A stretch of DNA of 14,225 nucleotides from a virus (lineage: Duplodnaviria > Heunggongvirae > Uroviricota > Caudoviricetes): IMG/VR virus record IMGVR_UViG_2778261499_000007, one strand, 5' to 3'. The translations under genes and the position numbers were made by a program. The stretch's first letter is position 1, and the number at the start of each line of letters is the position of its first letter. Under the pieces are notes generated by a model. It did not search any database, was not told the DNA's origin, and was given only the letters and a program-made list of their open reading frames with translations. Positions 1-14,225 of the stretch are shown here, piece after piece.

Positions 1-77
1 CCCCTCAGAGTGGATAGCTGCCAGTGTGGCGTAATTCAGGCCGCTATAGTGCTTTCCGTCATCCCAGCCAACCGCTA
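1..77. repeat. Terminal overlap copy 1 (identical to 14149-14225), marking a circular molecule
   Basis: Base-by-base comparison of both ends gives 77/77 identity. 77 is also a common assembler k-mer size, so this is most simply an assembly overlap and not a biological repeat. Confidence 0.9.
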
Positions 78-156
78 CACCTTCCATCTGTGAGAGCTCT
101 TTGTGCAGCTTATCCATCATGCGCTTGTCTATGGTGCAATGGACTTTCGGACTCAT
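1..156 (-). CDS. 5' part (codons 1-52) of a wrap-around 152-aa CDS; putative tail-completion / virion-morphogenesis protein (HK97 gp10-like)
   Basis: ATG at 156-154 is preceded by GGAG with an 8-nt spacer. This ATG overlaps the TGA (155-153) of the upstream gene as ATGA. The frame stays open through base 1 and continues at 14148. N-terminus: MSPKVHCTIDKRMMDKLHKELSQMEGVAVGWDDGKHYSGLNYATLAAIHSEG. The stretch ATLAAIHSEGWGDLPKRSFMESA resembles the yA..vEfG....P.rpF motif of HK97 gp10-type tail components (from memory). Confidence 0.6.
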   Translation of the reverse strand, partial: MSPKVHCTIDKRMMDKLHKELSQMEGVAVGWDDGKHYSGLNYATLAAIHSEG

Positions 157-956
157 TTGTTGATCTCCGTGATGTCATCGAGCAACATGTTGGCCTTATC
201 GATCATCGTTTCGTGGAACTCATTCGACACAACAGACTTATCACCTGCGGCAATCTTTCCAGCAGCCTCTCCCTGTGCATATTCCCCGCGATGCTTAGCC
301 CTGGTGGATTTCGTAGCAGCGTTGCCAGCGTTGCTACCCTCTTTAGCACTGTTAACAGCACCCTTTTGCTGTGTTTTGTTCACCTTCTTACTGTTAGTGA
401 AAACTCCGGCATTTTCGACCATCTTCACCTTGAAGGTGCGGAATTCTTCAAAAGTGCAATCAATAGTGATGCAGTCGCCAGAGGAAGAGCTACGCTTAAC
501 TTCACATTTCGTCATGATGAAGTTCTCAAGAAGTCCGGCATCTTCACTAACCAGGCTAACCAGCTGGCGCTTGTCTCTCATTTCCATAAGTGCCTGAACA
601 GCGGCAGCAGGGCGCATAGATTCACGGGGATTATCTGGATCAGTGTTCCGGTCGATGTAGTTCTCTTTCCGGATGATATGAGGGGAAGAGGTGATAATAC
701 CCGTAAAGCTGACAGATTTATCTTTAATGACGGCATGGTCTGACATGGTGGTGCCATCCTCGACCGCATAGCTCGATTTCTCGACAGGGAACGAATAGCT
801 GACATCAGAGATTGAGTCAAAGAAGATAGCCACGTTATCGGTATAGTTGAAGCCATCCATTATATTTTTGTTTTGTGAATATCCCCCACACATAACAGTG
901 AATGCAGGAGATCTCGACTCAGCTTGTTTTGCAGCTGTCAGAGCATCACTAGCCAT
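153..956 (-). CDS. Putative Dit-like / baseplate-type tail protein (267 aa from Met19 of the track ORF)
   Basis: GGAGG lies 10 nt upstream of the ATG at 956. The track start at 1010 is a TTG with no SD. SFPVEKSSYAVEDGTTMSDHAVIKDKSVSFTGIITS, followed by AAVQALMEMRDKRQLVSLVSEDAGLLENFIMTKCEVKR, matches the PvEdG..isDh...P..l...G pattern plus the later L..l....lv.lvt....y.nm.i....v.r pattern of Dit-like N-terminal domains (from memory). The C-terminal third is low complexity. Confidence 0.45.
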   Translation of the reverse strand: MASDALTAAKQAESRSPAFTVMCGGYSQNKNIMDGFNYTDNVAIFFDSISDVSYSFPVEKSSYAVEDGTTMSDHAVIKDKSVSFTGIITSSPHIIRKENYIDRNTDPDNPRESMRPAAAVQALMEMRDKRQLVSLVSEDAGLLENFIMTKCEVKRSSSSGDCITIDCTFEEFRTFKVKMVENAGVFTNSKKVNKTQQKGAVNSAKEGSNAGNAATKSTRAKHRGEYAQGEAAGKIAAGDKSVVSNEFHETMIDKANMLLDDITEINK

Positions 957-1150
957 ATTAAACATGCCTCCAAATTGGTCCACTTCATGGATTTGGCTAA
1001 ACTCGTGCAAGTAGCACTCATCCCGAGGGTGTTAAAGCCAAACCTGCAAAAGATGCAGGCAAAATAGAACTTATCGTTGCCCTGCTTAAAATCTGCAGAA
1101 AATACAGGGCAGTTATTCGTTAGAATCGCTTATAGCTCTTCCCGAGAGCG

Positions 1151-1402
1151 TTATTTTGCAAAACGATTATGGGCATTCAGGGCTTTTTTGCGGTCCTGGG
1201 CTTGTTTGCGTGCAATAAAATGTTCGAAAGTCTCGGCCCAGGTGCATTTATTATATTCACGGTATTTATGCATAGCCTGGCGGCTAACGTCATAGCAGGC
1301 GGCAAATGTGGAGATACGCAGGAATTCCGGCAGATCCTCGTCATCGATATGGATAATATCAAAAGGCACGTCATCACGGTCGCCGTATAAAACAATTTTC
1401 AT
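1151..1402 (-). CDS. Small HTH DNA-binding protein (83 aa)
   Basis: GAGGTG lies 6 nt upstream of the ATG at 1402. HTH-like stretch: ISTFAACYDVSRQAMHKY. The C-terminus is basic. The gene lies just outside the left inverted repeat. Confidence 0.55.
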   Translation of the reverse strand: MKIVLYGDRDDVPFDIIHIDDEDLPEFLRISTFAACYDVSRQAMHKYREYNKCTWAETFEHFIARKQAQDRKKALNAHNRFAK

Positions 1403-1436
1403 AAAAGACACCTCAAAAACTTAAGACGGGGATTAT

Positions 1437-1480
1437 GAGTCCTTCCAGGACCTTAGCTAAAGCTAAGCCCTTTGGGTCTG
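1437..1480 (-). repeat. Inverted repeat IR-L (44 nt, reverse complement of 4293-4336 with 5 mismatches)
   Basis: The minus strand reads cagacccaaagggcttagctttagctaaggtcctggaaggactc. It contains the palindrome CTTAGCT-TT-AGCTAAG and the hairpin GTCCT-GGA-AGGAC. Confidence 0.9.
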
Positions 1481-1487
1481 TGGATAA
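1479..1487 (-). promoter_or_regulatory. Perfect DnaA box (TTATCCACA on the minus strand)
   Basis: The plus strand reads tgtggataa, a 9/9 match to the E. coli consensus. It abuts IR-L. Confidence 0.4.
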
Positions 1488-1488
1488 T

Positions 1489-1541: not shown

Positions 1542-1543
1542 TT

Positions 1544-2578: not shown

Positions 2579-2589
2579 TTCCAACCTCC

Positions 2590-2925: not shown

Positions 2926-3410
2926 TTGATCACCTGCGATTTAAATTAACTCCCCTCAAAGAGTTCCGGTATAACCTCTCAAACCGCGACAGGCTCGGGC
3001 CGAAAAGTTATGCCGGAAATCTAAAGGGGGATTGATATAAGGAGAGGGAGATAGCCCCGCACCGTAGCCAAGCGGGGGCTATTCCACATGGGGAAACCGA
3101 CAACAGTCGGATGATAGTTCACAGTATGGGTTACGGTTACTAGAGAGCACTATCACGAAAGGCACTCCCCCGAATCAGTTCAGGCTGCGGTCACATCAGC
3201 GGGGAAATACCTTTCGGGATAGCTACCCACACAGAAAACCCGCAAAAGAAAACTGTGTGGATAACTAGCCCAATAGGAGAATTAATCGACCACTCAACGA
3301 TGATCAGGGTAGTGTTATTTATAGGGCGGCACCGCTACCTGGTCGCCTTTACTTTGGAGGAAAATATGGCAAATCAAGATCTTCTCAAATGATATTGATT
3401 CCATACTATA
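2926..3410 (-). other. About 480-nt ORF-poor, hairpin-dense leader between the SOS promoter and the decoration gene (candidate cos/packaging region or regulatory RNA)
   Basis: Stems read directly: ATAGCCCCGC/GCGGGGCTAT (3051-3081); CCGAC/GTCGG; CCACACAG/CTGTGTGG (3228-3260); TCCGG.ATAAC/GTTATACCGGA (2966-3019, 11 bp with 1 mismatch); and a nested long hairpin at about 3140-3226. There is a GC-rich quasi-symmetric block, GGGCGGCACCGCTACCTGGTCGCC, at 3324-3347. Confidence 0.4.
3256..3264 (-). promoter_or_regulatory. Perfect DnaA box (TTATCCACA on the minus strand)
   Basis: The plus strand reads tgtggataa, 9/9. It lies within the 3' arm of the CCACACAG/CTGTGTGG hairpin and its 3' flank. Confidence 0.35.
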
Positions 3411-3428
3411 CTGTATATTATATCAGTA
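3409..3428. promoter_or_regulatory. LexA operator (SOS box)
   Basis: TACTGTATATTATATCAGTA equals TACTG-N10-CAGTA with an all-A/T spacer. This is the canonical E. coli-type CTG-N10-CAG palindrome. It overlaps the -10 element of the promoter below. Confidence 0.8.
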
Positions 3429-3445
3429 TTTACTCACATTGTCAA
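3417..3445 (-). promoter_or_regulatory. Consensus sigma70 promoter firing leftward toward the decoration/capsid operon
   Basis: The minus strand reads TTGACA (3445-3440), a 17-nt spacer atgtgagtaaatactga, then TATAAT (3422-3417). Both hexamers and the spacing are perfect. Confidence 0.8.
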
Positions 3446-3775
3446 CACCTTGATTATATAAATTCTAATAATTAGCGTAGTAACGGTATTTTCAGACCTC
3501 TATCAATCCCATCAATACGTCACCCCCACCCTTTAGATGCATACATCCGACCTACTTTGTAGGCTTGGCGTACTGCCAAGGTCGCAGCTATGCGACTCCT
3601 ATCTATCACCACTTTATAAAGCTTGATAGATATCTTTTGATCAATATCAATGTTTTCCGGGTATTTACCCGGCTATAGTTCGAATCAAGGAAGGGGAGCA
3701 TTGATAGAGACACCCAAAGGGGTGACTGAAAGTCACCTGGCATAGCCAGTGAAAGCACCCAACCGAACAAACAAA

Positions 3776-3790
3776 TCAACTTCTCGCAAA
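3776..3790 (+). promoter_or_regulatory. Conserved leader motif copy 1 (TCAACTTCTCGCAAA), 26 nt before an ATG
   Basis: Identical 15-mer to 4367-4381, at the same distance from the start codon. Confidence 0.6.
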
Positions 3791-3801
3791 AGGTGATAGT
3801 T

Positions 3802-3924
3802 ATGGGTATCAAGAACAGTGCCAGCGCATGGCAAAAGGCCAGGTTTCATCACCCACACATTGTTAAGGCAATTGAGGTGGTTGGAGTTTTAGCCCTGATG
3901 TTAGCTCTGTGTGTGGAGGTGTGA
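3802..3924 (+). CDS. Small protein, 40 aa, with a hydrophobic C-terminal segment
   Basis: AGGTGA SD upstream. Translation: MGIKNSASAWQKARFHHPHIVKAIEVVGVLALMLALCVEV. It is below the ORF-track size cut-off and was translated by hand. Confidence 0.4.
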   Translation: MGIKNSASAWQKARFHHPHIVKAIEVVGVLALMLALCVEV

Positions 3925-3925
3925 G

Positions 3926-4006
3926 ATGGGCAAAGGAGGCAAAGCATTTTTAATAGGTCTGGCTATCCTGGATGTTCTACTAATCATGATTAAGCGGAGT
4001 TTATGA
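3926..4006 (+). CDS. Small membrane peptide, 26 aa
   Basis: GGAGG lies 6 nt upstream. The start is 1 nt after the previous stop. Translation: MGKGGKAFLIGLAILDVLLIMIKRSL. Confidence 0.4.
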   Translation: MGKGGKAFLIGLAILDVLLIMIKRSL

Positions 4007-4025
4007 ACAGCATTGAGAGGAGTTT

Positions 4026-4286
4026 ATGACGGGGGCTAAAGATATCAGGAGACTGAGGGAAGAGCTGATAGCTGAAATTAAAGCTAAGGCAAAGCAAATG
4101 GAGATAGCCGCACAAATGGATGTAGCGGAACAGATGTACAAGATGGTTGAGGAGGGAACGCCACGACAGGTTATCGCTAAAACCTTCGGTGTGGGGATCG
4201 CCACCGTGCACAGAAGGCTGAAAGCCTATGCCGACTACCACAATATCGAGAGAAAGGAGGATGGGAGATTTAAGAAGAATAAATAG
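4026..4286 (+). CDS. Stand-alone recombinase-type HTH protein (86 aa; coiled helix plus a Hin/resolvase-like HTH, no catalytic domain)
   Basis: GTPRQVIAKTFGVGIATVHRRL aligns with Hin GHPRQQLAIIFGIGVSTLYRYF (10/22 identical, from memory). The N-terminal 40 aa is a charged helix. No serine-recombinase catalytic domain is present anywhere in the element. Confidence 0.55.
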   Translation: MTGAKDIRRLREELIAEIKAKAKQMEIAAQMDVAEQMYKMVEEGTPRQVIAKTFGVGIATVHRRLKAYADYHNIERKEDGRFKKNK

Positions 4287-4292
4287 TAGGAA

Positions 4293-4336
4293 CAGGCCCG
4301 AAGGGCTTAGCTTTAGCTAAGGTCCTATCAGGACTC
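4293..4336 (+). repeat. Inverted repeat IR-R (44 nt, partner of 1437-1480)
   Basis: Sequence: caggcccgaagggcttagctttagctaaggtcctatcaggactc. It starts 7 nt after the HTH gene stop. Confidence 0.9.
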
Positions 4337-4366
4337 CCACACAGTCCAACAGGTTATTAACTAAAT

Positions 4367-4381
4367 TCAACTTCTCGCAAA
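4367..4381 (+). promoter_or_regulatory. Conserved leader motif copy 2 (TCAACTTCTCGCAAA), 26 nt before an ATG
   Basis: See 3776-3790. Confidence 0.6.
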
Positions 4382-4392
4382 GGGGTACCACT

Positions 4393-5103
4393 ATGTTTAA
4401 AGGTCTTGTTGTTACGCTATTGGCTTGCATTGTATTTGGTCCATGGGTGTTAGTAATTGCTTTACCTATATTGCTGATCATGAGCTTAGGGAATGATATT
4501 AAAAAGCTGCATGCACAATATAAGGAGCATCCTGGAGCAGTCATAACAAGTCTGGTTATAGTCGCGGGGCTTATTGGCTGGGTCTACTTCTCTCTTCCCA
4601 CAGGAAATACAACTGCAAATGTAGAAGAGGCGAACGCACAGCATGAAGAAGTGGTTAACGTCGCCGACCTTACATGGGAGGACAGGGTAAAAGCATATAA
4701 ATATATTTATGGTGTGCTAGATTGCGATCTCTCTAAAGATATAGGATGCACAGATAAATACCAGATTCACGCCTGGCTGTGGAATCATGCAGAAAAAGGT
4801 GCTTGCAACCAGATTAAAGTGGCGGTTAACAGTGGGGCACCTACTGGGAAAAATAAAGATGTTCTGACGGTATGGTGCAAGGATGTAAAAGGCAATGATC
4901 GTTGGCTACAGATGCGCCACATGGACGGTGTAAGCATAGAAACTACACGAACGGCTCGATGGTATAACGGTGAACTCGTTCACGAAGCATGGCAGAATAA
5001 CGCCTGGATCACTGAGGGAACACTCCTGAATGTTGATATGGAAGCATTGAAGATGCTTAATGAGATGTACGGTGAAGCCGTAGAAACCTCTCCGATGAAA
5101 TAA
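4393..5103 (+). CDS. Membrane protein (236 aa) with N-terminal TM helices and a Cys/Trp-rich extracytoplasmic domain; function unknown
   Basis: Hydrophobic stretches: LVVTLLACIVFGPWVLVIALPILLIM and VITSLVIVAGLIGWVYF. Soluble C-terminal domain. Followed by a strong terminator. Confidence 0.6.
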   Translation: MFKGLVVTLLACIVFGPWVLVIALPILLIMSLGNDIKKLHAQYKEHPGAVITSLVIVAGLIGWVYFSLPTGNTTANVEEANAQHEEVVNVADLTWEDRVKAYKYIYGVLDCDLSKDIGCTDKYQIHAWLWNHAEKGACNQIKVAVNSGAPTGKNKDVLTVWCKDVKGNDRWLQMRHMDGVSIETTRTARWYNGELVHEAWQNNAWITEGTLLNVDMEALKMLNEMYGEAVETSPMK

Positions 5104-5113
5104 CCACACCTAC

Positions 5114-5140
5114 CAGGGGCCATCACGGCCCCTTTTTATT
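5114..5140 (+). terminator. Rho-independent terminator
   Basis: AGGGGCC-atcac-GGCCCCT followed by TTTTTATTT. Confidence 0.8.
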
Positions 5141-5200
5141 TATCCCCTATTTACACTCCTTTCAGTCCTGATCATCACTCCCTACCCCCTGATCAATTAA

Positions 5201-5251
5201 CCCCTATTTAAGGGGTATTTAATGGGTATTTAATGCCTATTTATTGATTTA
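5201..5251. repeat. Phased 11-bp repeats (SSSTATTTAWK, 4-5 copies)
   Basis: TATTTA starts at 5205, 5216, 5227 and 5238, an exact 11-bp period. There is a degenerate copy at about 5247 and an isolated copy at 5148. Confidence 0.7.
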
Positions 5252-6486
5252 ATCCGTTTTATGCCACAACCGCCCGGTTGACAGAGTAAGAGAGAGGGTG
5301 TAACCCTTTTTCGTAATACTAATAAAATCAATAGCTTAGCTCAATTGGCCTTTTCTCTGTTTTTGTCAAATTTAACATACCCTAAAAAACTGCAAAATCT
5401 GGCTGCAAGATTATCTGCAGCTGGATTTCTTACACCTCAATTTGTGGTATCACCCTGACTAGTTTGTGCATAAAATGAACAGTTTTTAACATTTCCTCTT
5501 CACCTGGTAACCACACAAAAAGCTAAAAACGAGGCACAGATAATCTTAGAGGCCTGTTTTCTTGTTATCACTCTGGAAACGTCGTAGAAGTGATTTTGAT
5601 GAAAGATGACCTACCCTATTACACCCCCATTTTTTGTTATCACAATTGCATCCTGTGCGGTGTATGGCTGTGTGCTGAAAGCGGTCTTGGGTGTGGGTGT
5701 CAGAAATATCCATTAGCGGTATTAATACCCGTCAGATGTTCGTCTGAGGTGCCAGGCAGGCGCTCCCCCACCTCCCTTTTTTCTTCTAACAATTCTCAAA
5801 TATCACACCACTGCCGACCACGTTACTACTCTGTTAATTCTTAAGCTTTGCTGTATGTTGTGCACATTATTTATTCAGGTGCGTGTACGTAAATTCTGGG
5901 CCTCCTTATCATGATTTTTAAATCAGATTTTGTAGTTCGGTTTCTTAGTGTAGATAAGATCTATTATGTTAAATGCAATTTTCCCAACCCTTCAAATCAA
6001 TGACTTACATGTAAGCATGCACTAACACCCCACACAGCACATTAGACGTATAGATGGCTATATCCCACATTTTTGATTGTTTTGTAGTCATTCCCCTGAT
6101 CATTTAACCAGTATAGTTTGTTCTTTGCAGACCACAAAATCGGAATTTACATCTGATTAACATAATCTGTTAGCATGATCACTATTACCCACACAACAAT
6201 AACCCCATGCAAGACTCTTCAGGCAATTTATCGGCGTGTTGGTGTGAACAGTCTTTCATGTTCTTTATGTTTTCATTGTCCTGTGTGAGGGAAGGATGGA
6301 CTGCCCCAGGGGCCACACTTATGATGCCCGGTCAACATAGCTATTGATAAAATCAACGGGTGTTGATCTGCATATTTCCCACACATGAGAGGAAATCAGA
6401 GCAAAGAGAGAGGAGAGAGGTTTGCTAGTCAAAATAGGTCAATTGACGGCTAATACAGAGTAAAAAATCAGATGCAATCACTCCCC

Positions 6487-6673
6487 ACCTGTTGGGATTT
6501 CCCGCACCTGTATAAGAATACAGTCATACTTTCCCGTTATACGGTCATACACATGATGGAATAACCTGTTGGAATTTCCTACAGGTTTAACCATACACAG
6601 GAGCTAACCTGTTGGAATTTCCTACTACTACCTGTCGGTATTTCCCACAGGTACCTGTTGGAATTTCCCACAC
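6487..6673 (+). repeat. Iteron array (5 x 21 bp, ACCTGTTGGAATTTCCCACAS); candidate replication origin
   Basis: Copies start at 6487, 6564, 6607, 6630 and 6653. The last three have a 23-bp period. Each contains an internal ACCTGT...ACAGGT dyad. An AT-rich flank (6674-6708) contains GATCTATTCTCTT on the minus strand (6683-6695), 1 mismatch from the oriC 13-mer GATCTnTTnTTTT. Confidence 0.75.
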
Positions 6674-6797
6674 TAATAGATAAAGAGAATAGATCAATAA
6701 AAAGAACTCCCCCTATAATCCCCCAACAAGGGGGGATGGGGAGGGATCAGAGAGTGGGGAAGGTTTTCTAAGGGAAAAGCTTAACCCACAAATGAAA

Positions 6798-7086
6798 GCC
6801 TAAAGAGCATTAGCGACTCTTTAGGCAATCTGTGTGTGGGGTGACAATGTATTCCATACATGACACGTCACCCAATTGTGTGTGGGGTGCTTACAGCACT
6901 TAAGCCTCTGGCTTAACCCTTCGGGCCTCTGTGTGGGAAGCGTAGTGCGATAGCACGTAGCTTTATAATGTGGAGTCCGGATAAGAGACTTCTGTTTCCA
7001 ATCCGGACCGTTTAAGCGAGGGATTCCGCTCGCCCGTGTATGCACACACGTAATAGGACGCTCAGAAATCGATTTTAAGGCCCAAA
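6798..7086 (+). other. Cluster of GC-rich hairpins (candidate structured ncRNA or single-strand initiation signal)
   Basis: GCCTAAAGAG/CTCTTTAGGC (6798-6826); GGGTGAC..GTCACCC with nested ATGTAT/ATACAT (6839-6873); CCC-TTCG-GGG context (6917-6925); GTCCGGAT/ATCCGGAC (6975-7008); GCGAG/CTCGC (7016-7033); AGGCCC/GGGCCT (7069-7086). TGTGTGTGGGGTG occurs twice (6831, 6877). Confidence 0.35.
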
Positions 7087-7231
7087 ACGGGGCCTACAGC
7101 AACCTAAACCATACTCCATAGTGCAATTGCATTGCCTGATGCTTAAATCGCGTTGTAGGGCATCTCATGAGGTTTGAGTTTAACACCCTCCAAAGTTTTA
7201 ACAAAAAGTGCTCTCCCTCCATTGTGGGCCA

Positions 7232-7261
7232 TTGACAATCTTATTGCATAAATGCTATAAG
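7232..7261 (+). promoter_or_regulatory. Promoter P1 (TTGACA-18-TATAAG)
   Basis: Read directly. Shares the ATTGACAAT motif with P2 and P3. Confidence 0.5.
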
Positions 7262-7360
7262 TGATTCTGGTTTTGACACGGTAGGGGCCATTAATAATGT
7301 TTACCCCTTTGCTGTGGACTTGCTTGCACCTATAGCACACCTAAATGATAATAATTCTCA

Positions 7361-7389
7361 TTGACAATTGGTTGACAATATGATAAGAT
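7361..7389 (+). promoter_or_regulatory. Promoter P2 (TTGACA-17-TAAGAT)
   Basis: Read directly. A second TTGACAAT lies 11 bp downstream, at 7372. Confidence 0.5.
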
Positions 7390-7424
7390 TATAAATAGGG
7401 GGAGAAACAGATCCGGAGGTCAAT

Positions 7425-7574
7425 GTGGAAATTACTGATGCAATAGCGATCATCAACCTGGCTGTACTGTGGTGCGGTGTTGCCTACATAGCCGGAGTAA
7501 CTGCAATCGACAATCTCGAAGAAAAAATGATAGATAAATACAAAAAGATTGTTGACAATTTGACGAATGTCTGA
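7425..7574 (+). CDS. Small single-TM peptide (49 aa, GTG start)
   Basis: GGAGG lies 5 nt upstream of the GTG. Translation: VEITDAIAIINLAVLWCGVAYIAGVTAIDNLEEKMIDKYKKIVDNLTNV. Not in the ORF track; translated by hand. Confidence 0.4.
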   Translation: MEITDAIAIINLAVLWCGVAYIAGVTAIDNLEEKMIDKYKKIVDNLTNV

Positions 7575-7580
7575 TAAAAT
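7552..7580 (+). promoter_or_regulatory. Promoter P3 (TTGACA-17-TAAAAT)
   Basis: Read directly. It lies inside the 3' end of the 49-aa ORF. Confidence 0.55.
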
Positions 7581-7630
7581 ATAAAGCATAGGGTAATTCT
7601 CATCATAGTGAATTTCCTTAAACAAAAATG

Positions 7631-7705: not shown

Positions 7706-7915
7706 ATGGCTAAAACCGGACCGATAAGCCAGCTGGTAAACTGGACTACTGACGAAATCGTCGAGAACGTGCTTAAAGGTAACTTTCGAAAAACTTCCGT
7801 TTATGCATTTATTCGTAAACACAAAGGGGAATACCCACATATTGAAGCGGCAATAGAAAAACTTAACTTTATCCGCATTGAGCGTGAGCTGGAAAGATAT
7901 AAACATCTACTTTGA
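7706..7915 (+). CDS. Small protein (69 aa), possible DNA-binding regulator
   Basis: AGGAG lies 8 nt upstream. First gene of the rightward operon. KTSVYAFIRKHKGEYP weakly recalls AlpA/Xis-type sTiYr.i..g.fP. Confidence 0.5.
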   Translation: MAKTGPISQLVNWTTDEIVENVLKGNFRKTSVYAFIRKHKGEYPHIEAAIEKLNFIRIERELERYKHLL

Positions 7916-7939
7916 TAAATAATCTTGGAGGATCATATT

Positions 7940-8326
7940 ATGGCAAATAACGATGAAAATTTTACTCCCTTTTTTAAACGTTTCATCAAATACACTTTTA
8001 AAAATCCGATTGCAAAAACTGCAACCAATAAAGAAAGATTTCACTTAAATGTGTTGGAGGTAACAATTTATGGTGAAATGGTAAGTTATTCTTTTAAGGA
8101 GGGTGAAGAAATAATTATCTCAGAGCTCTCGACGCAGACATTAGCAGACGATTATGATGTTACAGAGAAAACAGTAAGGTCGGCTATCAAAACATTAGAG
8201 GCTGCAGGTCTGATAAACGTTAAACGAGAACAGGGCAAATCGAATATCTACGAATTGCTAATTACCCCTGATCAGCTTGGCAAGATGTGCGATGAGCAGG
8301 GTATTAGAGAATATTTTATATATTAA
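7940..8326 (+). CDS. Winged-helix DNA-binding protein, short paralog of the Rep-like protein (128 aa)
   Basis: GGAGG lies 8 nt upstream of the ATG at 7940. The track start at 7925 is a TTG. It aligns along its whole length with the N-terminal 130 aa of the next protein (FTP.F..FI.Y.F..P.A....NK...ERF.L...E..IYG.MV...F.....I.ISE...LA.......VSAIK.LE.AGLI......G.SN.Y.LL.TPDQL..MC.E.G). Confidence 0.65.
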   Translation: MANNDENFTPFFKRFIKYTFKNPIAKTATNKERFHLNVLEVTIYGEMVSYSFKEGEEIIISELSTQTLADDYDVTEKTVRSAIKTLEAAGLINVKREQGKSNIYELLITPDQLGKMCDEQGIREYFIY

Positions 8327-8337
8327 TGGGGGGAACT

Positions 8338-9258
8338 ATGGCAGGAAATAAACTGGGGGCACCTTTTACCCCCTCTTTCGATTTCTTTATTCAGTATGAT
8401 TTTGATAAACCAGTAGCAACAACAATTTCTAATAAAAAGACTGGAACAGTTAAAGAGCGCTTCTATTTAACAGACTTTGAAATGTTGATTTATGGAAAAA
8501 TGGTGGGATTTCATTTTAACGGTGAGGGAATTTATATTTCAGAGCAAAAACTGGCAACTCAACTCAGAAAGGATCGCGGGAAAATAGTAAGCGCTATTAA
8601 ATCTCTGGAAAATGCCGGGCTTATTTCTAAAGATAGCCGGAAAGGCATGTCTAATAATTACAAATTGCTGAAAACCCCTGATCAATTGTTGGATATGTGC
8701 ATTGAGAAGGGCGTAAATATTCCAGAAGGCATCTTAGAGACTTTCGGAAAGACTGCCGCTAAAGTAGAACAGCCTCAGGAAGCCCCAAAACAAGCCACAC
8801 AGCAAGCTAAAAAGGCTAAAGTAGTGCAATTGCCTACCCAAGACACTAAAGCGCCTCAAATTAACGCTGTTAGTGACAAGCCACGCCGGGGCCGTCCTGT
8901 GAAAGATGTCACCGATGGAGGCTGGATCGTCCTGGGTGAGAGTGAGGCTAAAGGCATAATGCGATCACTGTGGGAAAGCAAATACAAAGATTTAAACAAA
9001 CGTCGCCCGATCCTTTTGTCAAAGATTCAGGAGGATTTTTACACCGCAGAAGAGGTAAGCCAACATAAAGGGAAAAGAGAGGGTGAAATCTGGAAACCGG
9101 AAGAATACTGGCATTTAACCAGACCTGTGTTTATTTTTGCAAATAAGCTTATTGGGATGGGATTTGAAATATTGTTGGATAAAACCTGCGGAGATTATCC
9201 CGAAATATTGTGGAGAAATGTTAGAAAAAATAAAAAAGGCATTTTAGAGTTTAAATAA
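8338..9258 (+). CDS. Putative replication initiator (306 aa): N-terminal winged helix plus a PRRGRP basic linker plus a C-terminal domain
   Basis: GGGGGG lies 4 nt upstream of the ATG at 8338, and the paralog alignment starts at MAGNK. The wHTH pattern is typical of plasmid/phage initiators. The iterons lie about 1.3 kb upstream. Confidence 0.55.
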   Translation: MAGNKLGAPFTPSFDFFIQYDFDKPVATTISNKKTGTVKERFYLTDFEMLIYGKMVGFHFNGEGIYISEQKLATQLRKDRGKIVSAIKSLENAGLISKDSRKGMSNNYKLLKTPDQLLDMCIEKGVNIPEGILETFGKTAAKVEQPQEAPKQATQQAKKAKVVQLPTQDTKAPQINAVSDKPRRGRPVKDVTDGGWIVLGESEAKGIMRSLWESKYKDLNKRRPILLSKIQEDFYTAEEVSQHKGKREGEIWKPEEYWHLTRPVFIFANKLIGMGFEILLDKTCGDYPEILWRNVRKNKKGILEFK

Positions 9259-9306: not shown

Positions 9307-9453
9307 ATGTATGGCGATTTTGATTATTACCTGGAAAAGGAAAAATATTTTGAAGATGAACTATCACAACATTTTTCATATTGGGAAGAATATTGTGGTT
9401 GGTTAGCTGAAGATCCAGCAGATGAAGAAAATGATTCTGACATCCCTTATTAA
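9307..9453 (+). CDS. Highly acidic, aromatic-rich 48-aa protein
   Basis: AAGGA lies 8 nt upstream. Translation: MYGDFDYYLEKEKYFEDELSQHFSYWEEYCGWLAEDPADEENDSDIPY (18 D/E, 2 K, 0 R). Not in the ORF track; translated by hand. Confidence 0.5.
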   Translation: MYGDFDYYLEKEKYFEDELSQHFSYWEEYCGWLAEDPADEENDSDIPY

Positions 9454-10113: not shown

Positions 10114-10557
10114 ATGTCTCAAATCGCTAAATTACTATCCCAGGTTATCAAAGCTTTCGACGCTGAAGATTCAAAAGTTCGCCAGGATCTTTTAGATGGC
10201 AAGTTTACCAACACCCTGGCATTTACCCGTGACAAAGAGCACTTCTTAAAACACAGACACCACGCTTTTGCTGAATGCAAGTCCGCTAATGGTGATGTTT
10301 TCTATGTCGATTTGGTGGTTATGGCATGTAGATTGTGGATGATTCAGGACCTTATGCGCCAACACGGTGATGATCCTCTTATCAGCATGTGGAACAGCGC
10401 CCAGGATGGCTTTGTGATTGCTGCCTTATCCAAATCAATGATTGAGGCAGAAGGGGCAAGCCTTCAGAACATGGCAGATCTCTTTGAAATAAGCGTAGGA
10501 ATGATGCAGACCATGCTCCAAGCTGTCAAACCTCTCAAACTGGTTAATCTTGATTAA
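10114..10557 (+). CDS. Hypothetical helical protein (147 aa)
   Basis: AAGGA lies 7 nt upstream. No recognisable motif. Confidence 0.55.
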   Translation: MSQIAKLLSQVIKAFDAEDSKVRQDLLDGKFTNTLAFTRDKEHFLKHRHHAFAECKSANGDVFYVDLVVMACRLWMIQDLMRQHGDDPLISMWNSAQDGFVIAALSKSMIEAEGASLQNMADLFEISVGMMQTMLQAVKPLKLVNLD

Positions 10558-10618
10558 GCTATTGATAAATAAGCACTCCCCATTTTTTTGGGGGGTGCAT
10601 CAATGAGAGGATATGCCT

Positions 10619-11002
10619 ATGAATATTGAAGAAATGATAGTTGAATTCGAAGATGGTGATTTCCTGGAAGATGGGGAGTTTAAATACTCCCGTTTTAAAC
10701 AGGCGTTATTTAGCAGTGAGGATAAACCACACGTTAGTGATCTTAACGACGATGATTTATGTCGTTGGGTATGCACCCGCTTATATGAGGATGGAAAATA
10801 TACAGGCCAAAACTTTCCAAATCTCTATTTCAAAGCACAAACATTTGAGGAAGGGCAAAGAGTGAAAAACCTGGTAGATAAAATGCTTTCAGCCGGATAT
10901 TTGCATAAAGAATTATTAAATCCTAAAGCTGAAAGCAAGCGCCATTATATTTTTGTGTGGTCTGTGGGGGATAAGTGCCCACTGAAGCGTAAAGGCAAAT
11001 GA
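10619..11002 (+). CDS. Hypothetical acidic protein (127 aa); tail assembly chaperone by position only
   Basis: GAGAGGA lies 7-8 nt upstream of the second ATG (10619). Acidic N-terminus. It sits two genes before the tape measure gene. Confidence 0.5.
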   Translation: MNIEEMIVEFEDGDFLEDGEFKYSRFKQALFSSEDKPHVSDLNDDDLCRWVCTRLYEDGKYTGQNFPNLYFKAQTFEEGQRVKNLVDKMLSAGYLHKELLNPKAESKRHYIFVWSVGDKCPLKRKGK

Positions 11003-11003
11003 T

Positions 11004-11189
11004 ATGAATACCTACGAAAAGATTTATCAAAAATTAAAAAGTGATAACAATGCTCCCGTCATCAAGGGCGGGGCTTCTTCCTCTGGTGACCTCTCAATCG
11101 AAGAGCTTGCGGAGAAATATAATATTGATAAAGAGGCCCTGAAAAGGGCTATTTCATTATCAAAATCTTTAAGACAAGGCGAGGTATAA
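11004..11189 (+). CDS. Hypothetical protein (61 aa)
   Basis: Tightly packed between its neighbours: it starts 1 nt after the upstream stop and its stop is 1 nt before the tape measure ATG. Confidence 0.5.
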   Translation: MNTYEKIYQKLKSDNNAPVIKGGASSSGDLSIEELAEKYNIDKEALKRAISLSKSLRQGEV

Positions 11190-11190
11190 A

Positions 11191-13293
11191 ATGGCAATGA
11201 AGGAAGTAGCCAAGCTAACAAACGTTATTTACTGGGATTCTGATAAATCCAGCTGGCGAAAAGAAGTTAAACGGCTTGAGGATTATAAAAAATCCTGGAA
11301 GAAAGCTACCGACGATATAGCTAAAGCGGATTTTAAATCTAATCAGGCTGTGCTCAGAACACAAAGAACACGCGCTAAGGTGGAAGAGCAGATCGCCAGA
11401 GCACAGAAGAAACAACGTGCTCAGGCTGTCAGCCGTCTGACCGGGGGCAATAATCCGGAGCTCTCCTCTATGCGCAAGTTCTATCAGCAGCAAGCCAGAG
11501 AGGCCGCCAGACAACAAAAACTGTTAGATCGTAGTGTTGGAGATGTTCAGCACAGAAAAGCACGTGTAGGGGCCAACAGTGCACGAATCAGCAGCATGTT
11601 TGATGGCTCCCTGGTTGCTCAGTTCCAATCCAGAATTCAGAGAGTTAATGCTGATTATGCTAAAGGGGCTATTAACCTGCAGACCTATAATCAGAAAATG
11701 GCCCGACTCAGATCTGAAATGAAGATGGCAACAGCAGAGGCCGGAAAATTTCAGAGCAGACTAGACAAAGCTGCGGTAGCAGGATCAAAGCTGCATGACA
11801 ACCTGGGCAAACTCAACTCCACACTAGGCAAGATAGCTATTGGCCTTACTGCCGCTGGCTGGGGTGTTCAGCGTGCTGTTAGTGGTGCTATGGGTAGCCT
11901 TGCAGATCGCAACAGTGCGTATTTCAGCTTAATGGCCCAGAACAAGGATGATAAAGAAAAAACTGATCAGCAGATGGCCTACGTCAAAAGAATCTCTTAT
12001 GACTACGGGATGGATCAGCGTGAGACTGAAGGCGGCTTTATGCGCTTTGCTGCAGCCACACCAAGCATAAAAGAGAAAGATAAGCAGGATCTCTTTGAGG
12101 CTATGGCGATTAAAGGCCGATCAGTGGGTGCTACCGCAGACCAACAGAACAGGGCTATCGTTGCACTAGGACAAATATATAGCAAGGGCGGTCGAGTGTA
12201 TGCGGAAGAGCTTAAGGGCCAACTTTCTGAAGCCCTGGCAGGTTCTCAGGTAGATTTCACTAAGGCCGCTATCGATGCCGGAGTCATCAAGAAAGAGGAA
12301 GAATTTAATAAAGCCCTTGAAGATGGCAAGATCACCATGGACAAGCTTCTTCCTTCTCTGGTGAAAATCTGGGGTGCTGCAAAAGAAACTAAAGCTTTTG
12401 CTGAATCCATGAAACAGCCAGAAGTAGCAATGCAGCGCATGAAAAACAGCTTTAACGAGCTGGCGATTCAGTTTATGGGTGTTGTGGATCCTGCAGATGG
12501 CGTTATTAGCTTATCTGAATCTCTAATCTCCATCTTCGAAGACCTCACCACTGATATGGACGGCAGCGGGAGCGCGGCAAAACAGTTCGGTGAGGCAGTC
12601 GGGGCTGCCATGCGGGAGATCATGTATTGGGTAGGCTTCGCTAAGGGATATATCGAGATTAAGGCTAAAGAGTTCGGCATGACCAGTGAGGAAGTCGGAG
12701 GATGGATCGGCAAGCTGGTTGTTGCAATCGCAGGTCTGAAGATCATCGGCACACTTCTTTCTCCGTTTACCGGACTGATTTCACTTGTCACACAGCTGAT
12801 AGCCTTGTTAGGTAAAATCCCTGGTATGAGCAAGCTTCTGGCTTCTGCCTCAGGTGGAACGGCAACAGGAGCAGCGGTCATCAGTGCAGGATCTAACGCT
12901 GAAAGAAGTTTCATTGATGGCAAGACGCAGGAAATGAGTAAGGAGAACTCAAAACAGGGTGCTTTGTTTGAGCTGGGAAGATTTGTTAGCAATGCTGGCG
13001 CACTATTCACACCTGGCGGTGATACTGGTCCTTTGTTCGATCAGGTCAGAGGCTGGTTTAATAAAGGGCCAACATTGACAGTAGACACTGGCATCAGACC
13101 AACACCAACGGGTGGCATAGCTATCCAGAATGGTGGATATCAACCAGTCCAAGTAAATGTAGCCCCACAAGGTGAGATTTCCGGCAAATGGGAGATAACC
13201 ATCGATGAGGGGGGAATTGCCAGGGTAATTCAGAAGGAAGTCAGCGATCAGTTGGATTGGAAAGCCACGCAGGAATCTAACCAGCTTTTCTAA
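11191..13293 (+). CDS. Tail tape measure protein (700 aa)
   Basis: GAGG lies 6 nt upstream. Long coiled-coil N-terminus. Conserved tape-measure core: ADQQNRAIVALGQIYSKGGRVYAEELKGQLSEALAGSQVDFTKAAIDAGV. Gly/Ala-rich hydrophobic segments: GKLVVAIAGLKIIGTLLSPFTGLISLVTQLIALLG. Confidence 0.85.
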   Translation: MAMKEVAKLTNVIYWDSDKSSWRKEVKRLEDYKKSWKKATDDIAKADFKSNQAVLRTQRTRAKVEEQIARAQKKQRAQAVSRLTGGNNPELSSMRKFYQQQAREAARQQKLLDRSVGDVQHRKARVGANSARISSMFDGSLVAQFQSRIQRVNADYAKGAINLQTYNQKMARLRSEMKMATAEAGKFQSRLDKAAVAGSKLHDNLGKLNSTLGKIAIGLTAAGWGVQRAVSGAMGSLADRNSAYFSLMAQNKDDKEKTDQQMAYVKRISYDYGMDQRETEGGFMRFAAATPSIKEKDKQDLFEAMAIKGRSVGATADQQNRAIVALGQIYSKGGRVYAEELKGQLSEALAGSQVDFTKAAIDAGVIKKEEEFNKALEDGKITMDKLLPSLVKIWGAAKETKAFAESMKQPEVAMQRMKNSFNELAIQFMGVVDPADGVISLSESLISIFEDLTTDMDGSGSAAKQFGEAVGAAMREIMYWVGFAKGYIEIKAKEFGMTSEEVGGWIGKLVVAIAGLKIIGTLLSPFTGLISLVTQLIALLGKIPGMSKLLASASGGTATGAAVISAGSNAERSFIDGKTQEMSKENSKQGALFELGRFVSNAGALFTPGGDTGPLFDQVRGWFNKGPTLTVDTGIRPTPTGGIAIQNGGYQPVQVNVAPQGEISGKWEITIDEGGIARVIQKEVSDQLDWKATQESNQLF

Positions 13294-13395
13294 TGTCCAC
13301 TCTGTGGATTTGAGTTCTACTCAAACCTGCATAGCAGGCACTGATATTGTGATCAAAATCAATAAGTTAGCCTGACCGGACAAACTCCAGGCAAG

Positions 13396-13432
13396 AAAAA
13401 AGCCCCTAAGTGTTAACAAAGGGGCTCTTCTC
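13396..13432. terminator. Bidirectional terminator between the convergent operons (best on the minus strand)
   Basis: AGCCCCT (13401-13407) / AGGGGCT (13420-13426), preceded by A6, so the minus strand reads stem plus TTTTTT. On the plus strand it is followed by CTTCTCC. Confidence 0.65.
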
Positions 13433-13456
13433 CGGTATCCTTTTGATGCGGGGCAA

Positions 13457-13504
13457 AACCTGCTAACAAAAATCAACCTCTCGCGAGACTAATGTTAGCA
13501 GGTT
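13457..13504 (+). other. 12-bp perfect hairpin whose 24-nt loop carries leader-motif variant 3
   Basis: AACCTGCTAACA / TGTTAGCAGGTT. The loop aaaatcaacctctcgcgagactaa contains TCAACCTCTCGCGAG (13473-13487) and the palindrome TCTCGCGAGA. Confidence 0.6.
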
Positions 13505-13822
13505 GCCGGAAGGTAAGTCAACTCCGGTCTATAAACCTTAAAGCGACTATAAAATCGCCCCGCCAATTGTGATGATCCGACCTTTGAGGCGGGTCCGGTG
13601 CCCAGGGGGTGCAGTGATGCACAAACCAGGCAACGATAAACAGGCTAACAGTGATAGCGGCGCTCAATCAGCGCACTAAATCCTAACCAGTCCGGGAAAG
13701 AGGCTGGCTCTATCGACCGCTCATGCACGGGACAATGCATACCTGATAAAGGATTCTCACAAGGGACCAATCGCGAGAAAGAAGTGGAAAGGGGCTGATT
13801 TGTGGTGTATCACTACGGCCTC

Positions 13823-13846
13823 AAAAGACATCCTATTGTCTTTTTT
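13823..13846 (+). terminator. AT-rich hairpin plus T-run (weak plus-strand terminator abutting the stop of the wrap-around gene)
   Basis: AAAAGACA-tcctat-TGTCTTTT followed by TT. Confidence 0.35.
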
Positions 13847-14148
13847 CAGCCTCTACCTACATTTGACCAATACTTGATTGCACCGATCAAATCATCATAG
13901 TGGCGCATTGCATCATTGAAGCCTTTATAGCTTGCCCATTGTGGTGAAACCTTGTTATTGCTGAATTGCCCACTAATCAGGATAGTCTCCAAAATGTCGG
14001 CATATCGCTTACCAATACGCTTTCTGACGGCCTCAGAGCTCCCACCCTTTACGATTGCATTAATCAGGGCTTTTGTGTGTCTCAGGCTCTCATAGAGCAT
14101 TGCAGCGTGGGCAGATTCCATAAAGGAGCGCTTAGGCAGATCACCCCA
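13846..14148 (-). CDS. 3' part (codons 53-152 plus stop) of the wrap-around CDS
   Basis: The ORF track lists only 13846-14121, starting at an internal Met. Hand translation shows the frame is open upstream through 14225 (...AVGWDDGKHYSGLNYATLAAIHSEGWGDLPKRSF-MESAH...). Confidence 0.6.
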   Translation of the reverse strand, partial: WGDLPKRSFMESAHAAMLYESLRHTKALINAIVKGGSSEAVRKRIGKRYADILETILISGQFSNNKVSPQWASYKGFNDAMRHYDDLIGAIKYWSNVGRG

Positions 14149-14225
14149 CCCCTCAGAGTGGATAGCTGCCAGTGTGGCGTAATTCAGGCCGCTATAGTGC
14201 TTTCCGTCATCCCAGCCAACCGCTA
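14149..14225. repeat. Terminal overlap copy 2 (identical to 1-77)
   Basis: Same comparison as for copy 1. Confidence 0.9.

Follow-up and report, generated by a model that had tools for sequence, protein, structure and literature searches.

The window, the whole stretch of 14,225 nucleotides analysed here, is a 14,148-bp circle once its 77-nt end overlap is subtracted. It carries virion genes together with a plasmid replication region, and about 30% of it is non-coding. Its features are listed below, with the strand where one applies.

1-77 and 14149-14225: terminal overlap, exact 77-nt identity, an assembler artefact of a circular contig
13846-14148 continued in 1-156, minus: neck or tail-completion-like gene, 152 aa (phrog_222 'tail completion or Neck1', 2e-28)
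13846-14225, minus: 3' part of the neck gene, the ORF being joined over the circle junction
78-156, minus: 5' end of the neck gene, with a 4-nt overlap between its ATG and the stop codon of the tube-initiator gene lying upstream
153-1010, minus: tail tube initiator (Dit_like; Pfam PF21821, 2.5e-25)
1151-1411, minus: small conserved protein, 83-86 aa, probably HTH, between the major capsid protein and tube-initiator genes in all lineages
1437-1481: 45-nt triple-hairpin module (I1), an inverted repeat 89% complementary, immediately 3' of the major capsid protein gene
1544-2584, minus: major capsid protein (MCP), lambda gpE / PF03864 type, 346 aa (phrog_29, 5.5e-21)
2590-2925, minus: 111-aa putative decoration protein of the head; its gene directly precedes the MCP gene, an arrangement also seen in rV5-like phages
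3417-3445, minus: sigma-70 promoter with perfect consensus (TTGACA-17-TATAAT, extended TG), directed towards the decoration/MCP operon
3698-3757: 57-nt indel, with 52 nt 90% identical to a Vequintavirus intergenic site
4026-4286, plus: HTH_7-type DNA-binding protein, 86 aa, candidate regulator (Pfam HTH_7, 3.4e-6; pN/pS 0.09)
4393-5103, plus: variable 'cargo' gene for a 236-aa membrane protein; relatives have alleles of 172-199 aa in its place
5104-7424: largely gene-free region, CCACACA-rich, conserved at 93-98% within the group over 5200-6400
6485-6671: iterons, five 21-nt copies with consensus TAACCTGTTGGAATTTCCTAC, two of them exact; presumed replication origin
7425-7574, plus: conserved small membrane protein, 49 aa, annotated in all RefSeq relatives
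7552-7580, plus: strong sigma-70 promoter (11/12 matches), driving the rightward operon
7706-7915, plus: conserved 69-aa protein upstream of Rep, kept in lineages L029 and L031, 34% identical to that of L024
7925-8326 and 8326-9258, plus: two paralogous wHTH Rep-like genes, 133 and 310 aa (PHROG replication-initiator matches, 1e-8 and 1e-7)
9307-9453, plus: very acidic invariant protein, 48 aa, an ORF identical to WP_001682500
9552-10040, plus: 162-aa core protein with two HTHs and the invariant motif SWNPRCR, also present in the integrated islands
10114-11189, plus: three conserved small genes (147, 129 and 61 aa) that immediately precede the tape measure gene
11191-13293, plus: tape measure protein (TMP), 700 aa (phrog_5255, 2e-153)
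13385-13846: structured conserved non-coding element of roughly 450 nt, with a bidirectional terminator at about 13395-13430

Maintenance as a plasmid

The initial annotation described a circular replicon with a gene that closes only across the junction. Both record ends match exactly over 77 nt, and the 152-aa neck ORF indeed runs over the junction on the minus strand. The same annotation held that the proposal would fall if the contig were a mis-circularised piece of a larger phage genome. A length of 77 is a usual assembler k-mer value, and the overlap alone could be a mere k-mer artefact. However, syntenic complete circular plasmids of 13.2-13.7 kb are present in 7 of 5,426 complete E. coli genomes, and additional related circular contigs measure 13.4-14.7 kb. 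In total, at least 10 independent circular records or contigs, long-read complete genomes included, have the same size and synteny. The DNA of the element is absent from IMG/VR and GenBank phage records, and no virome match was obtained. Since independent circular plasmids of equal size and synteny exist, the refutation fails and an assembly artefact can be practically dismissed. The size span of all members across lineages, 13.2-14.7 kb, is consistent with a capsid-size limit.

Within the 5,426 genomes, nine plasmid places and no chromosomal copy were found. With the Rep-like genes, the iterons and the lack of an integrase match, this agrees with the earlier proposal that the element persists as a plasmid. 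It is thus extrachromosomal and integrase-free, as are satellite-plasmids; some distant relatives were found as integrated islands. A wHTH Rep with cognate tandem iterons defines iteron-type theta plasmids; the five 21-nt iterons and the two Rep-like genes, already noticed in the initial annotation, correspond to this definition on a sequence basis, the origin function being putative. The iteron region co-varies with Rep among the plasmids. The paralogous pair, also seen as a direct repeat (D2), is replaced by a single Rep of 265-305 aa in most relatives.

The remaining genes are small. WP_001682500, the acidic protein, is present in six of the eight annotated relatives. An AF2 model of the 162-aa two-HTH protein (pLDDT 78) gave no significant fold match. 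The 83-86-aa protein is kept in L014, L015, L016, L029 and L031 (pN/pS 0.18). The cargo protein is 50-60% identical across plasmids that are otherwise 95% identical, and it has no family match in Pfam, PHROGs, NCBIfam or PADLOC. A second copy of the 45-nt triple-hairpin lies at 4292-4336, 3' of the 86-aa HTH gene and in the same sense relative to the gene, and the module is probably a terminator or an mRNA stabiliser. The promoters at 3417-3445 and 7552-7580 have a 42-nt sequence (I2) in common. The sequence gives no evident sign of helper-dependent induction of the capsid operon, whose sigma-70 promoter is perfect.

The best-conserved DNA of the family is the structured element at 13385-13846. 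It is 99% identical within the group and 76% identical over 308 nt in L029 (E 2e-45), with 14-18 compensatory pairs, and no Rfam family matches it. Lineages L029 and L031 have a counterpart of the gene-free region, 2.3-3 kb long. The heptamer CCACACA, enriched about tenfold in the plasmids, shows the same enrichment in the gene-free region of an rV5-like phage, which is one link between the two.

Structural genes and their phage relatives

Five structural genes had been proposed. For the MCP, the TMP, the Dit-like protein and the neck protein, family matches bear this out. The MCP of the window itself falls below the Pfam reporting threshold, and its close homologs (P0019-P0021) match PF03864 Phage_cap_E; together with the phrog_29 match, this gives the element a capsid protein of one of the two types, PF03864 or PF05065, used to define satellite-plasmids. 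Relatives of the TMP match PF20155 TMP_3. The tube initiator matches the 'tube initiator protein' 9cuy_K of the PDB (1.4e-34) as well as phi92 gp135, and its true start is probably at position 956; the resulting 267 aa are the length annotated for RefSeq relatives. The fifth assignment, a gpD-like decoration protein at 2590-2925, is weakly supported: in hhalign, the 111-aa product and the rV5-like decoration protein pair over their full lengths with 19% identity (E 0.02), and Pfam HDPD is matched (7.5e-4) by a single sequence of that alignment. The 147-, 129- and 61-aa genes, for which Pfam, PHROGs, NCBIfam and PADLOC searches gave no family match, could from their position encode tail-assembly chaperones.

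The same four resources gave no match for terminase, portal, protease, sheath, tube, baseplate, lysis (holin, endolysin) or integrase genes. The absences listed in the initial annotation (large terminase, portal, integrase, tail tube, protease and lysis genes) therefore stand, as does its count of three ORFs above 300 aa (346, 310 and 700 aa). Sensitive searches for terminase or portal homologs among the hypothetical ORFs, which it had named as another possible refutation, found none; the ORFs without assignment, at 48-236 aa, could accommodate neither a large terminase nor a portal. Neither a small terminase nor a pac site was identified in the element. Judged from these missing virion, packaging and lysis matches, the element cannot be autonomous. 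It thereby resembles satellites in general, which are without an autonomous virion and lysis gene set. It does not fall among phage-plasmids, defined by a complete phage repertoire plus plasmid functions, since its phage genes are five structural ones, with none for packaging or lysis.

An incomplete virion gene set and a large non-coding share would also be expected of a decaying remnant, either of a small phage-plasmid or of a defective prophage, left as a cryptic plasmid with non-functional structural genes. However, pN/pS is 0.02-0.31 in all 11 well-aligned genes, the variable cargo and Rep regions being left out, and 0.5-1.7 in spurious ORFs used as a control. The values are 0.02 for the neck gene, 0.10 for the MCP, 0.13 for the putative decoration gene, 0.16 for the tube initiator, 0.23 for the TMP and 0.08-0.31 for the three small genes upstream of it. 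By this measure, the structural genes are intact and kept by selection. The module formed by the decoration, MCP, small ORF and tube-initiator genes is kept in lineages with MCPs 82%, 43% and 30% identical. The neck gene is kept in all compared lineages except L016, the one with the 30% identical MCP, and the convergent TMP gene comes next in every lineage whose sequence reaches far enough. Because lineages whose proteins are only 30-50% identical have retained the same reduced set, the design of the element is, on this comparative ground, old and stable. No pseudogene fragments of other phage genes were found. With purifying selection this strong on every structural gene, a decaying remnant is very improbable.

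Wherever a structural protein of the element has phage relatives, its top matches database-wide come from virulent myoviruses of the rV5-like type (Vequintavirinae and allies). In comparison with the proteins of the rV5-like phage CarlMeissner, the neck protein is 45% identical (to bas48_0011), the tube initiator 50% (to bas48_0019), the TMP 26% over about 500 aa, and the MCP 24%. The order decoration then MCP is also common to both. The phages differ in that their genomes are of 137 kb and hold complete virion, replication and lysis genes, whereas the plasmid retains five out of some 40 structural genes, with identities of 24-50%. A DNA link is provided by the 57-nt indel. The non-coding query matched 40 phage records; 39 of them, all rV5-like, have the indel sequence, and the 40th is an unrelated promoter-like match. 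It is limited to the window, L001 and L003 (three of nine close plasmids), and the test phage CarlMeissner is without it. The indel is a footprint of DNA exchange.

A proposed plasmid-borne satellite of rV5-like phages

The initial annotation proposed a lambda-like helper. Such a helper is unlikely in view of the matches to virulent myoviruses; with rV5-like relatives, sheath and baseplate would also have to be borrowed, and a co-resident prophage is not expected. In sequence comparison, four structural homologs of 24-50% identity and the 57-nt indel point to the Vequintavirinae. Because five virion genes are present and no others, the element is most likely a plasmid-borne satellite of rV5-like phages. 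We consider it somewhat probable that it is an E. coli satellite plasmid whose helper is a virulent rV5-like myovirus, a member of the Vequintavirinae or a close ally.

The helper could instead be an unsampled myovirus, temperate or virulent, with closer MCP and TMP, the rV5-like phages being its nearest sequenced relatives. MCP and TMP are only 24-26% identical to their rV5-like counterparts, an exhaustive HMMER search found no non-satellite MCP above about 30% identity, and for the neck protein several genera give about the same similarity (41-49%). Against this, the 57-nt indel is shared with E. coli Vequintaviruses in particular, the top matches of the tube initiator are E. coli rV5-like phages (51%), and the plasmid and these phages share their host species. 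We regard an unsampled helper as unlikely. With MCP and TMP only about 25% identical, the fit of the plasmid proteins with the portal, scaffold and baseplate of an rV5-like helper is uncertain.

According to the satellite model with an rV5-like helper, infection of a plasmid-bearing cell would lead the two structural operons of the plasmid to supply its own shell subunits. These, with helper portal and scaffold, would form a small capsid suited to about 14 kb. Tails of the plasmid particles would be nucleated by the plasmid-encoded TMP, tube initiator and neck protein, which would draw baseplate, tube and sheath subunits away from the helper. Packaging of the plasmid DNA would fall to the helper terminase and release of the particles to helper lysis, and the element at 13385-13846 is a candidate for a cis site, or an RNA, that serves packaging or the sensing of the helper. 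Helper yield would drop as a side effect, so that the plasmid would also protect the host population.

Protection might even be the whole function. In a non-transmissible defence plasmid, the structural homologs would be decoys that poison rV5-like head and tail assembly, and the plasmid would never be packaged. No small terminase, pac site or virome match was found, and the most phage-similar proteins, neck and tube initiator (45-50%), are those that would join helper assemblies. The variable cargo gene adjoins the capsid module, as in defence hotspots, and interference with tail assembly is a known defence strategy (PMC11364771). However, interference would be costly by means of a full-length MCP, a decoration protein and a TMP of 700 aa, on each of which purifying selection acts along the whole length, and the size of the element is tightly held at 13.2-14.7 kb across lineages. 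This reading has a minor, though real, chance of being right. It is compatible with the satellite reading, because satellites usually interfere with their helpers.

Position among described satellites

The initial annotation stated that described satellite families are all integrative. This is outdated: the satellite-plasmids PISP and cf-PISP of Vibrio were described in 2025-26 (bioRxiv 10.1101/2025.10.10.681744; Nat Commun 2026, PMC13230959), and pDolos is an inovirus satellite plasmid (cited in PMC12282955). PISP and cf-PISP are, like the element, circular integrase-free plasmids, of 11-16 kb, with capsid genes but without a full virion (10.1101/2025.10.10.681744; PMC13230959), and PISP shares its PF03864 (gpE-type) capsid protein (10.1101/2025.10.10.681744). 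According to their authors, they were found in Vibrio only, have parA/repA, a head protease and a small terminase, and have no tail genes; cf-PISP additionally has portal, adaptors and terminases (10.1101/2025.10.10.681744; PMC13230959). In contrast, in the element from E. coli, TMP, tube initiator and neck genes are present, and protease, TerS and ParA are undetected. No match was obtained in it for the head protease and small terminase that define PISP or the portal, adaptors and terminases that define cf-PISP, and its tail genes depart from the definition of a satellite-plasmid as free of them.

In cf-PICIs, too, a satellite-encoded MCP makes the shell and the helper provides the rest of the virion. 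However, cf-PICIs are integrated, encode portal, protease, head-tail adaptor, connector, TerS and TerL, and steal tails only; the element is episomal and without those genes, yet has tail-initiation and tail-length genes. The markers that define both PICIs and cf-PICIs are an integrase, a regulator of the alpA type, pri-rep and terS, to which cf-PICIs add portal, adaptor, connector and terL; tail genes count as forbidden components (PMC10085698). None of these markers was detected in the element, and tail genes are present.

Other likenesses are functional. PLE of Vibrio cholerae is a satellite of a strictly virulent myovirus, ICP1, with its own replication initiator and small capsids, and it blocks its helper; it differs in being integrated and in remodelling helper coat protein with the scaffold TcaP, an MCP of its own being absent. 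No sequence homology to PLE was detected. P4, of about 11.6 kb, can persist as an E. coli plasmid and redirects its myovirus helper P2 to small capsids. It does so with the external scaffold Sid acting on the helper MCP, and it has an integrase and the alpha primase but no shell or tail structural genes. No Pfam or PHROG family corresponding to the P4-like markers (integrase, psu-delta-sid operon, alpha primase/helicase) was matched in the element, which thus falls outside P4-like satellites. As the initial annotation suspected, no description of the gene combination was found in the literature searched.

We propose more tentatively that the satellite re-specifies both ends of the virion of a virulent myovirus, with its own shell on one side and its own ruler, initiator and neck on the other, that it carries a non-coding RNA or DNA signal for packaging or helper sensing, and that it belongs, as one branch, to a larger family of MCP-plus-TMP satellites with integrated forms in other Enterobacterales. 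If so, no satellite with tail-length determinants would have been known before it, and it would be the first plasmid satellite in E. coli whose helper is a tailed phage. Since satellite finders reject elements with tail genes, such a family would be invisible to them, and the satellite gene repertoire would be broader than assumed. E. coli, the most tractable host, would gain a plasmid satellite of virulent phages used in therapy and biocontrol, and suitable helper phages are publicly available, for example in the BASEL collection. Because the element encodes size-determining and nucleating parts, it would be a natural experiment on capsid size and tail length. Its transmission would explain the spread of one class of 'non-mobilizable' cryptic plasmids, and the element at 13385-13846 may be a new kind of structured non-coding element.

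Circular replicon and gene content

The terminal 77 nt of the window are identical at both ends, which gives a circle of 14,148 bp; assemblers commonly use a k-mer of 77. Once the sequence is circularised, a minus-strand ORF of 152 aa is complete only when read through the junction, as initially annotated, and five 21-nt iterons and matches to replication-initiator PHROGs bear out the circular replicon with an iteron origin and Rep-like genes. Its features are as follows.

Features of the element (coordinates, strand, description)
complement(13846..14148,1..156), minus: neck or tail-completion-like gene, 152 aa (phrog_222 'tail completion or Neck1', 2e-28)
153-1010, minus: Dit-like gene, hereafter tube initiator (Pfam Dit_like, 2.5e-25)
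1151-1411, minus: 86-aa ORF
1544-2584, minus: major capsid protein, MCP (phrog_29 'major head protein', 5.5e-21)
2590-2925, minus: 111-aa ORF, putative decoration gene
4026-4286, plus: helix-turn-helix (HTH) protein
4393-5103, plus: 236-aa membrane protein
between the 236-aa gene and the 69-aa ORF: long stretch almost free of ORFs
6485-6671: iterons, five 21-nt copies
7706-7915, plus: 69-aa ORF
7925-9258, plus: two Rep-like paralogs (replication-initiator PHROGs)
between the Rep genes and the tape measure gene, plus: ORFs of 162, 147, 129 and 61 aa
11191-13293, plus: tape measure protein, TMP, 700 aa (phrog_5255, 2e-153)

Only three ORFs exceed 300 aa, and searches of Pfam, PHROGs, NCBIfam and PADLOC gave no family match for a terminase, portal, protease, tube, lysis protein or integrase, as the initial annotation had proposed, nor for a sheath. 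Four of its five structural genes (MCP, TMP, Dit-like and neck) stand by profile match, and the gpD-like gene is the weakest call. This 111-aa ORF lies directly upstream of the MCP gene, like the decoration gene in rV5-like phages, and aligns end to end with the rV5-like decoration protein (19% identity, hhalign E 0.02); a single member of that alignment matches Pfam HDPD (7.5e-4). A PDB sequence search with the 111-aa protein gave no match and its single-sequence AF2 model was unusable (pLDDT 36).

The 162-aa ORF encodes a two-HTH protein with a decent AF2 model (pLDDT 78), for which PDB and BFVD gave nothing significant, only a weak resemblance to sigma factors and HTH proteins; a TerS role is conceivable. 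HMM comparison of the 147-, 129-, 61-, 86- and 69-aa ORFs with the phage structural module gave nothing significant, and PADLOC and NCBIfam returned no match for the unknown proteins. No TerS or pac site was found in the element, and the window contains no tRNAs. An extremely acidic 48-aa protein (9307-9453; WP_001682500) shows no difference between the window and the six annotated relatives carrying it; in L029, a divergent lineage of the plasmid family, a 126-aa acidic protein occupies its position. The 48-aa protein could be a DNA mimic or inhibitor.

Megablast against PLSDB returned syntenic circular plasmids of 13.2-13.7 kb. Of 5,426 complete E. coli genomes, 7 have such an element, always plasmid-borne and with no chromosomal copies; the related plasmids come from human, cattle, chicken and feral-pig hosts across four continents. 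In a collection of 5.8 billion proteins, the only contigs with the MCP are from E. coli and measure about 13.4-14.3 kb; one MCP cluster has 441 member sequences. The plasmid group of the window also includes two contigs of about 13.9 kb from metagenomes. With the window's MCP as query, GTDB species representatives and IMG/VR yielded no family members, and none of the deposited phages contains window DNA by megablast. Since independent circular plasmids are syntenic and of the same size, the contigs carrying the MCP are from E. coli only and within that size range, metagenomes hold contigs of the same group, and no phage carries the DNA, the idea of a mis-circularised fragment of a larger phage fails. 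One record, NZ_CP043822.1 (39,610 bp), contains three head-to-tail copies of the element, one with fragmented genes; it is either a real multimer or an artefact of assembling long reads.

Kinship with rV5-like phages and constancy of the gene set

Tblastn against 50,697 phage records placed the best matches of MCP, TMP, tube initiator and neck in Vequintavirinae and allied genera, which are virulent rV5-like myoviruses of about 137 kb. With the full genome of phage CarlMeissner, identities are 45% for the neck (bas48_0011, 1e-33), 50% for the tube initiator (bas48_0019, 6e-61), 24% for the MCP (bas48_0008, 5e-9) and 26% for the TMP (bas48_0018, 6e-18). Further matches of the tube initiator are a 'tube initiator protein' of solved structure (9cuy_K, 1.4e-34) and phi92 gp135. 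Because every phage best match is rV5-like, the lambda-like helper initially put forward is rejected. The numerous MG0656xx GenBank records named 'Campylobacter phage' (e.g., H46, H53, H77-H80) hold unannotated sequences, about 135 kb long, of rV5-like phages of E. coli, and are probably mislabelled or contaminant assemblies.

The rV5-like phages possess a motif-rich, unannotated gene-free region of roughly 2.5 kb with convergent gene clusters on both sides (CarlMeissner 91797-94280; L010:2155-4647, in another rV5-like phage record). Within it (L010:3001-3052) sits the counterpart of 52 nt of the window (3704-3755). At 90% identity, these nucleotides match a variable, unannotated intergenic site that 39 Vequintavirus records share and that other phage groups lack. 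These 52 nt belong to a discrete 57-nt triple-hairpin indel (window 3698-3757), one hairpin of which shows a compensatory change. The indel is found in only three of nine close plasmids and is missing from CarlMeissner, which rules out a pac or regulatory site of the core. Its appearance is that of a small segment that is mobile or has recombined, and we read it as the probable footprint of plasmid-phage recombination in one cell.

Nine plasmids were aligned over their full length and served for the calculation of pN/pS. The values are 0.02 for the neck, 0.10 for the MCP, 0.13 for the putative decoration gene, 0.16 for the tube initiator and 0.23 for the TMP; well-aligned small genes give 0.08-0.31 and spurious control ORFs 0.5-1.7. 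An exhaustive HMMER search with the MCP uncovered intermediate relatives. The same module (small protein, MCP, small protein, Dit-like protein), followed by a convergent long ORF, is present on contigs whose MCPs are 82%, 43% and 30% identical; of these, only the lineage at 30% identity (L016) does not carry the neck gene. The whole architecture, including a gene-free region of 2.3-3 kb, recurs in two more complete E. coli lineages, one of 13.4 kb (L031) and one of 14.7 kb with a 99-nt terminal overlap (L029/L030). In a normal phage, about 8 kb and ten genes separate the MCP and tube-initiator genes. The constancy of the minimal set across wide divergence, together with purifying selection, argues that the reduced gene set is a working design and not debris.

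Regulatory and non-coding sequences

Besides the shared 52 nt, the heptamer CCACACA, often as yCCCACACA, is a second link to the phages at the DNA level: all three plasmid lineages and the phage gene-free region have about ten times the expected number. The window has 16 copies vs. 1.4 expected, 12 of them in non-coding DNA and mostly at 3200-7000; L029 has 12, L031 has 11, and the phage gene-free locus has 9 vs. 0.84 expected. In CarlMeissner, the heptamer peaks in the gene-free locus and in a divergent control region (90-95 kb and 131-134 kb). The enrichment was not seen in the integrated relatives described below. An assignment to DnaA boxes was dismissed, only one site fitting TTATCCACA by eye.

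A perfect sigma-70 promoter on the minus strand (3445..3417) faces the decoration/MCP operon, and another with 11 of 12 matches (7552..7580) faces the rightward operon. These two promoters, the strongest of the element, have in common a 42-nt sequence (3406-3447 and 7550-7591; TGTTGACAAT...CTGATAnAATATA), which suggests a common operator, one repressor possibly controlling both the capsid operon and the replication/tail operon.

A 45-nt triple-hairpin module stands at 1437-1481, immediately 3' of the MCP gene, and at 4292-4336, 3' of the 86-aa HTH gene, in the same sense relative to both; a further site is at 6911-6928. It is probably a reused 3' hairpin, either terminator or mRNA stabiliser. 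An invertible segment is unlikely, the nearby 86-aa protein being only an HTH protein and synteny being identical in all plasmids.

In the nine-plasmid alignment, the variable parts are the Rep/iteron region and the 236-aa gene, which fits incompatibility diversification and a cargo hotspot, respectively. The plasmids diverge most in Rep and iterons; most relatives have a single Rep of 265-305 aa, and the window and the close plasmid L001 show a partial tandem duplication of the Rep gene (133 aa and 310 aa; 68-nt repeat, 71% identity). In plasmids that are otherwise 95% identical, alleles of 172-199 aa that look unrelated take the place of the 236-aa gene, which has no match to known defence families.

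The best-conserved DNA across the plasmid lineages is non-coding: about 450 nt (13385-13846) that separate the TMP gene from the neck gene, which converge on it, with counterparts at L029:12215-12680 and L031:9625-10081. It is 99% identical within the group and 76% identical to that of L029 over 308 nt (E 2e-45); the L029 genes barely align as DNA. RNAalifold on four sequences found 14-18 pairs changed on both sides, with thin statistics as only two lineages are effectively independent. Among the pairs are five consecutive compensations in a long-range helix; the element also has an invariant 45-nt run and is apparently structured. Rfam gave nothing above chance on the whole window and no family for 13385-13846; the conserved core has no match in IMG/VR, and the only metagenome sequences with it are two further plasmids of this group.

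A candidate plasmid satellite and its integrated relatives

Of a contractile-tailed virion, the element encodes just those parts that set size or nucleate assembly, namely shell subunit, cement, tail ruler, the protein starting tube polymerisation on the hub, and neck protein, and no bulk or enzymatic parts. Of the initial proposal, an episomal satellite borrowing from a lambda-like helper, the first half holds as the best explanation, to which we give somewhat better than even credence; the helper group would be rV5-like. The most economical reading is that the plasmid would build small heads and its own tails out of helper parts, that the helper terminase would package its DNA, and that particles would be released through helper lysis. 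A limit set by a small capsid fits the narrow range of sizes, 13.2-14.7 kb; by analogy with P4, SaPIs and PLE, this capsid would be about T=4. The same gene set could belong to a non-transmissible plasmid interfering with phage assembly, the main rival, which we regard as rather improbable.

Compared with known systems, this putative satellite would work most like a capsid-forming one, and does not fit the definitions of PICI, cf-PICI, P4-like elements, PISP and phage-plasmids. That satellites are all integrative, the initial premise, no longer holds. In a 2025 review, pDolos, a satellite of an inovirus, was the only plasmid shown to be a phage satellite (PMC12282955), and Vibrio cf-PISP and PISP were then reported as the first plasmid-borne satellites of tailed phages (2025 preprint; Nat Commun 2026). 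PISP carry a PF03864 capsid, a protease and TerS; PISP and cf-PISP were found in Vibrio only and have no tail genes, whereas the E. coli element carries them. SatelliteFinder would reject the plasmid family by design, because tail genes are among its forbidden components (PMC10085698). The literature searched contains no description of the element.

MCPs at 22-26% identity are found in small integrated islands of Enterobacter, Dryocola, Pseudocitrobacter (two copies), Kluyvera, Silvania and Pantoea (L018:1500-11400, L020, L022-L028). Each island carries an integrase, a gene-free stretch of roughly 2 kb, a Rep-like wHTH protein, a homolog of the 162-aa two-HTH protein (29-33% identity), a Phage_phiTE_211 (Pfam) protein, a TMP homolog of roughly 710 aa, a decoration-like protein, an MCP and a small HTH protein. 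Tube-initiator and neck genes are absent from the islands; therefore, MCP, TMP and the 162-aa protein look like the core of a broader satellite-like family, of which the E. coli plasmids would be an episomal, more tail-equipped branch. The islands may be an undescribed integrative satellite family with a TMP. The interest of the element lies in the surprising occurrence of tail genes in a putative satellite, in its E. coli host, and in the fact that it is testable with available phages.
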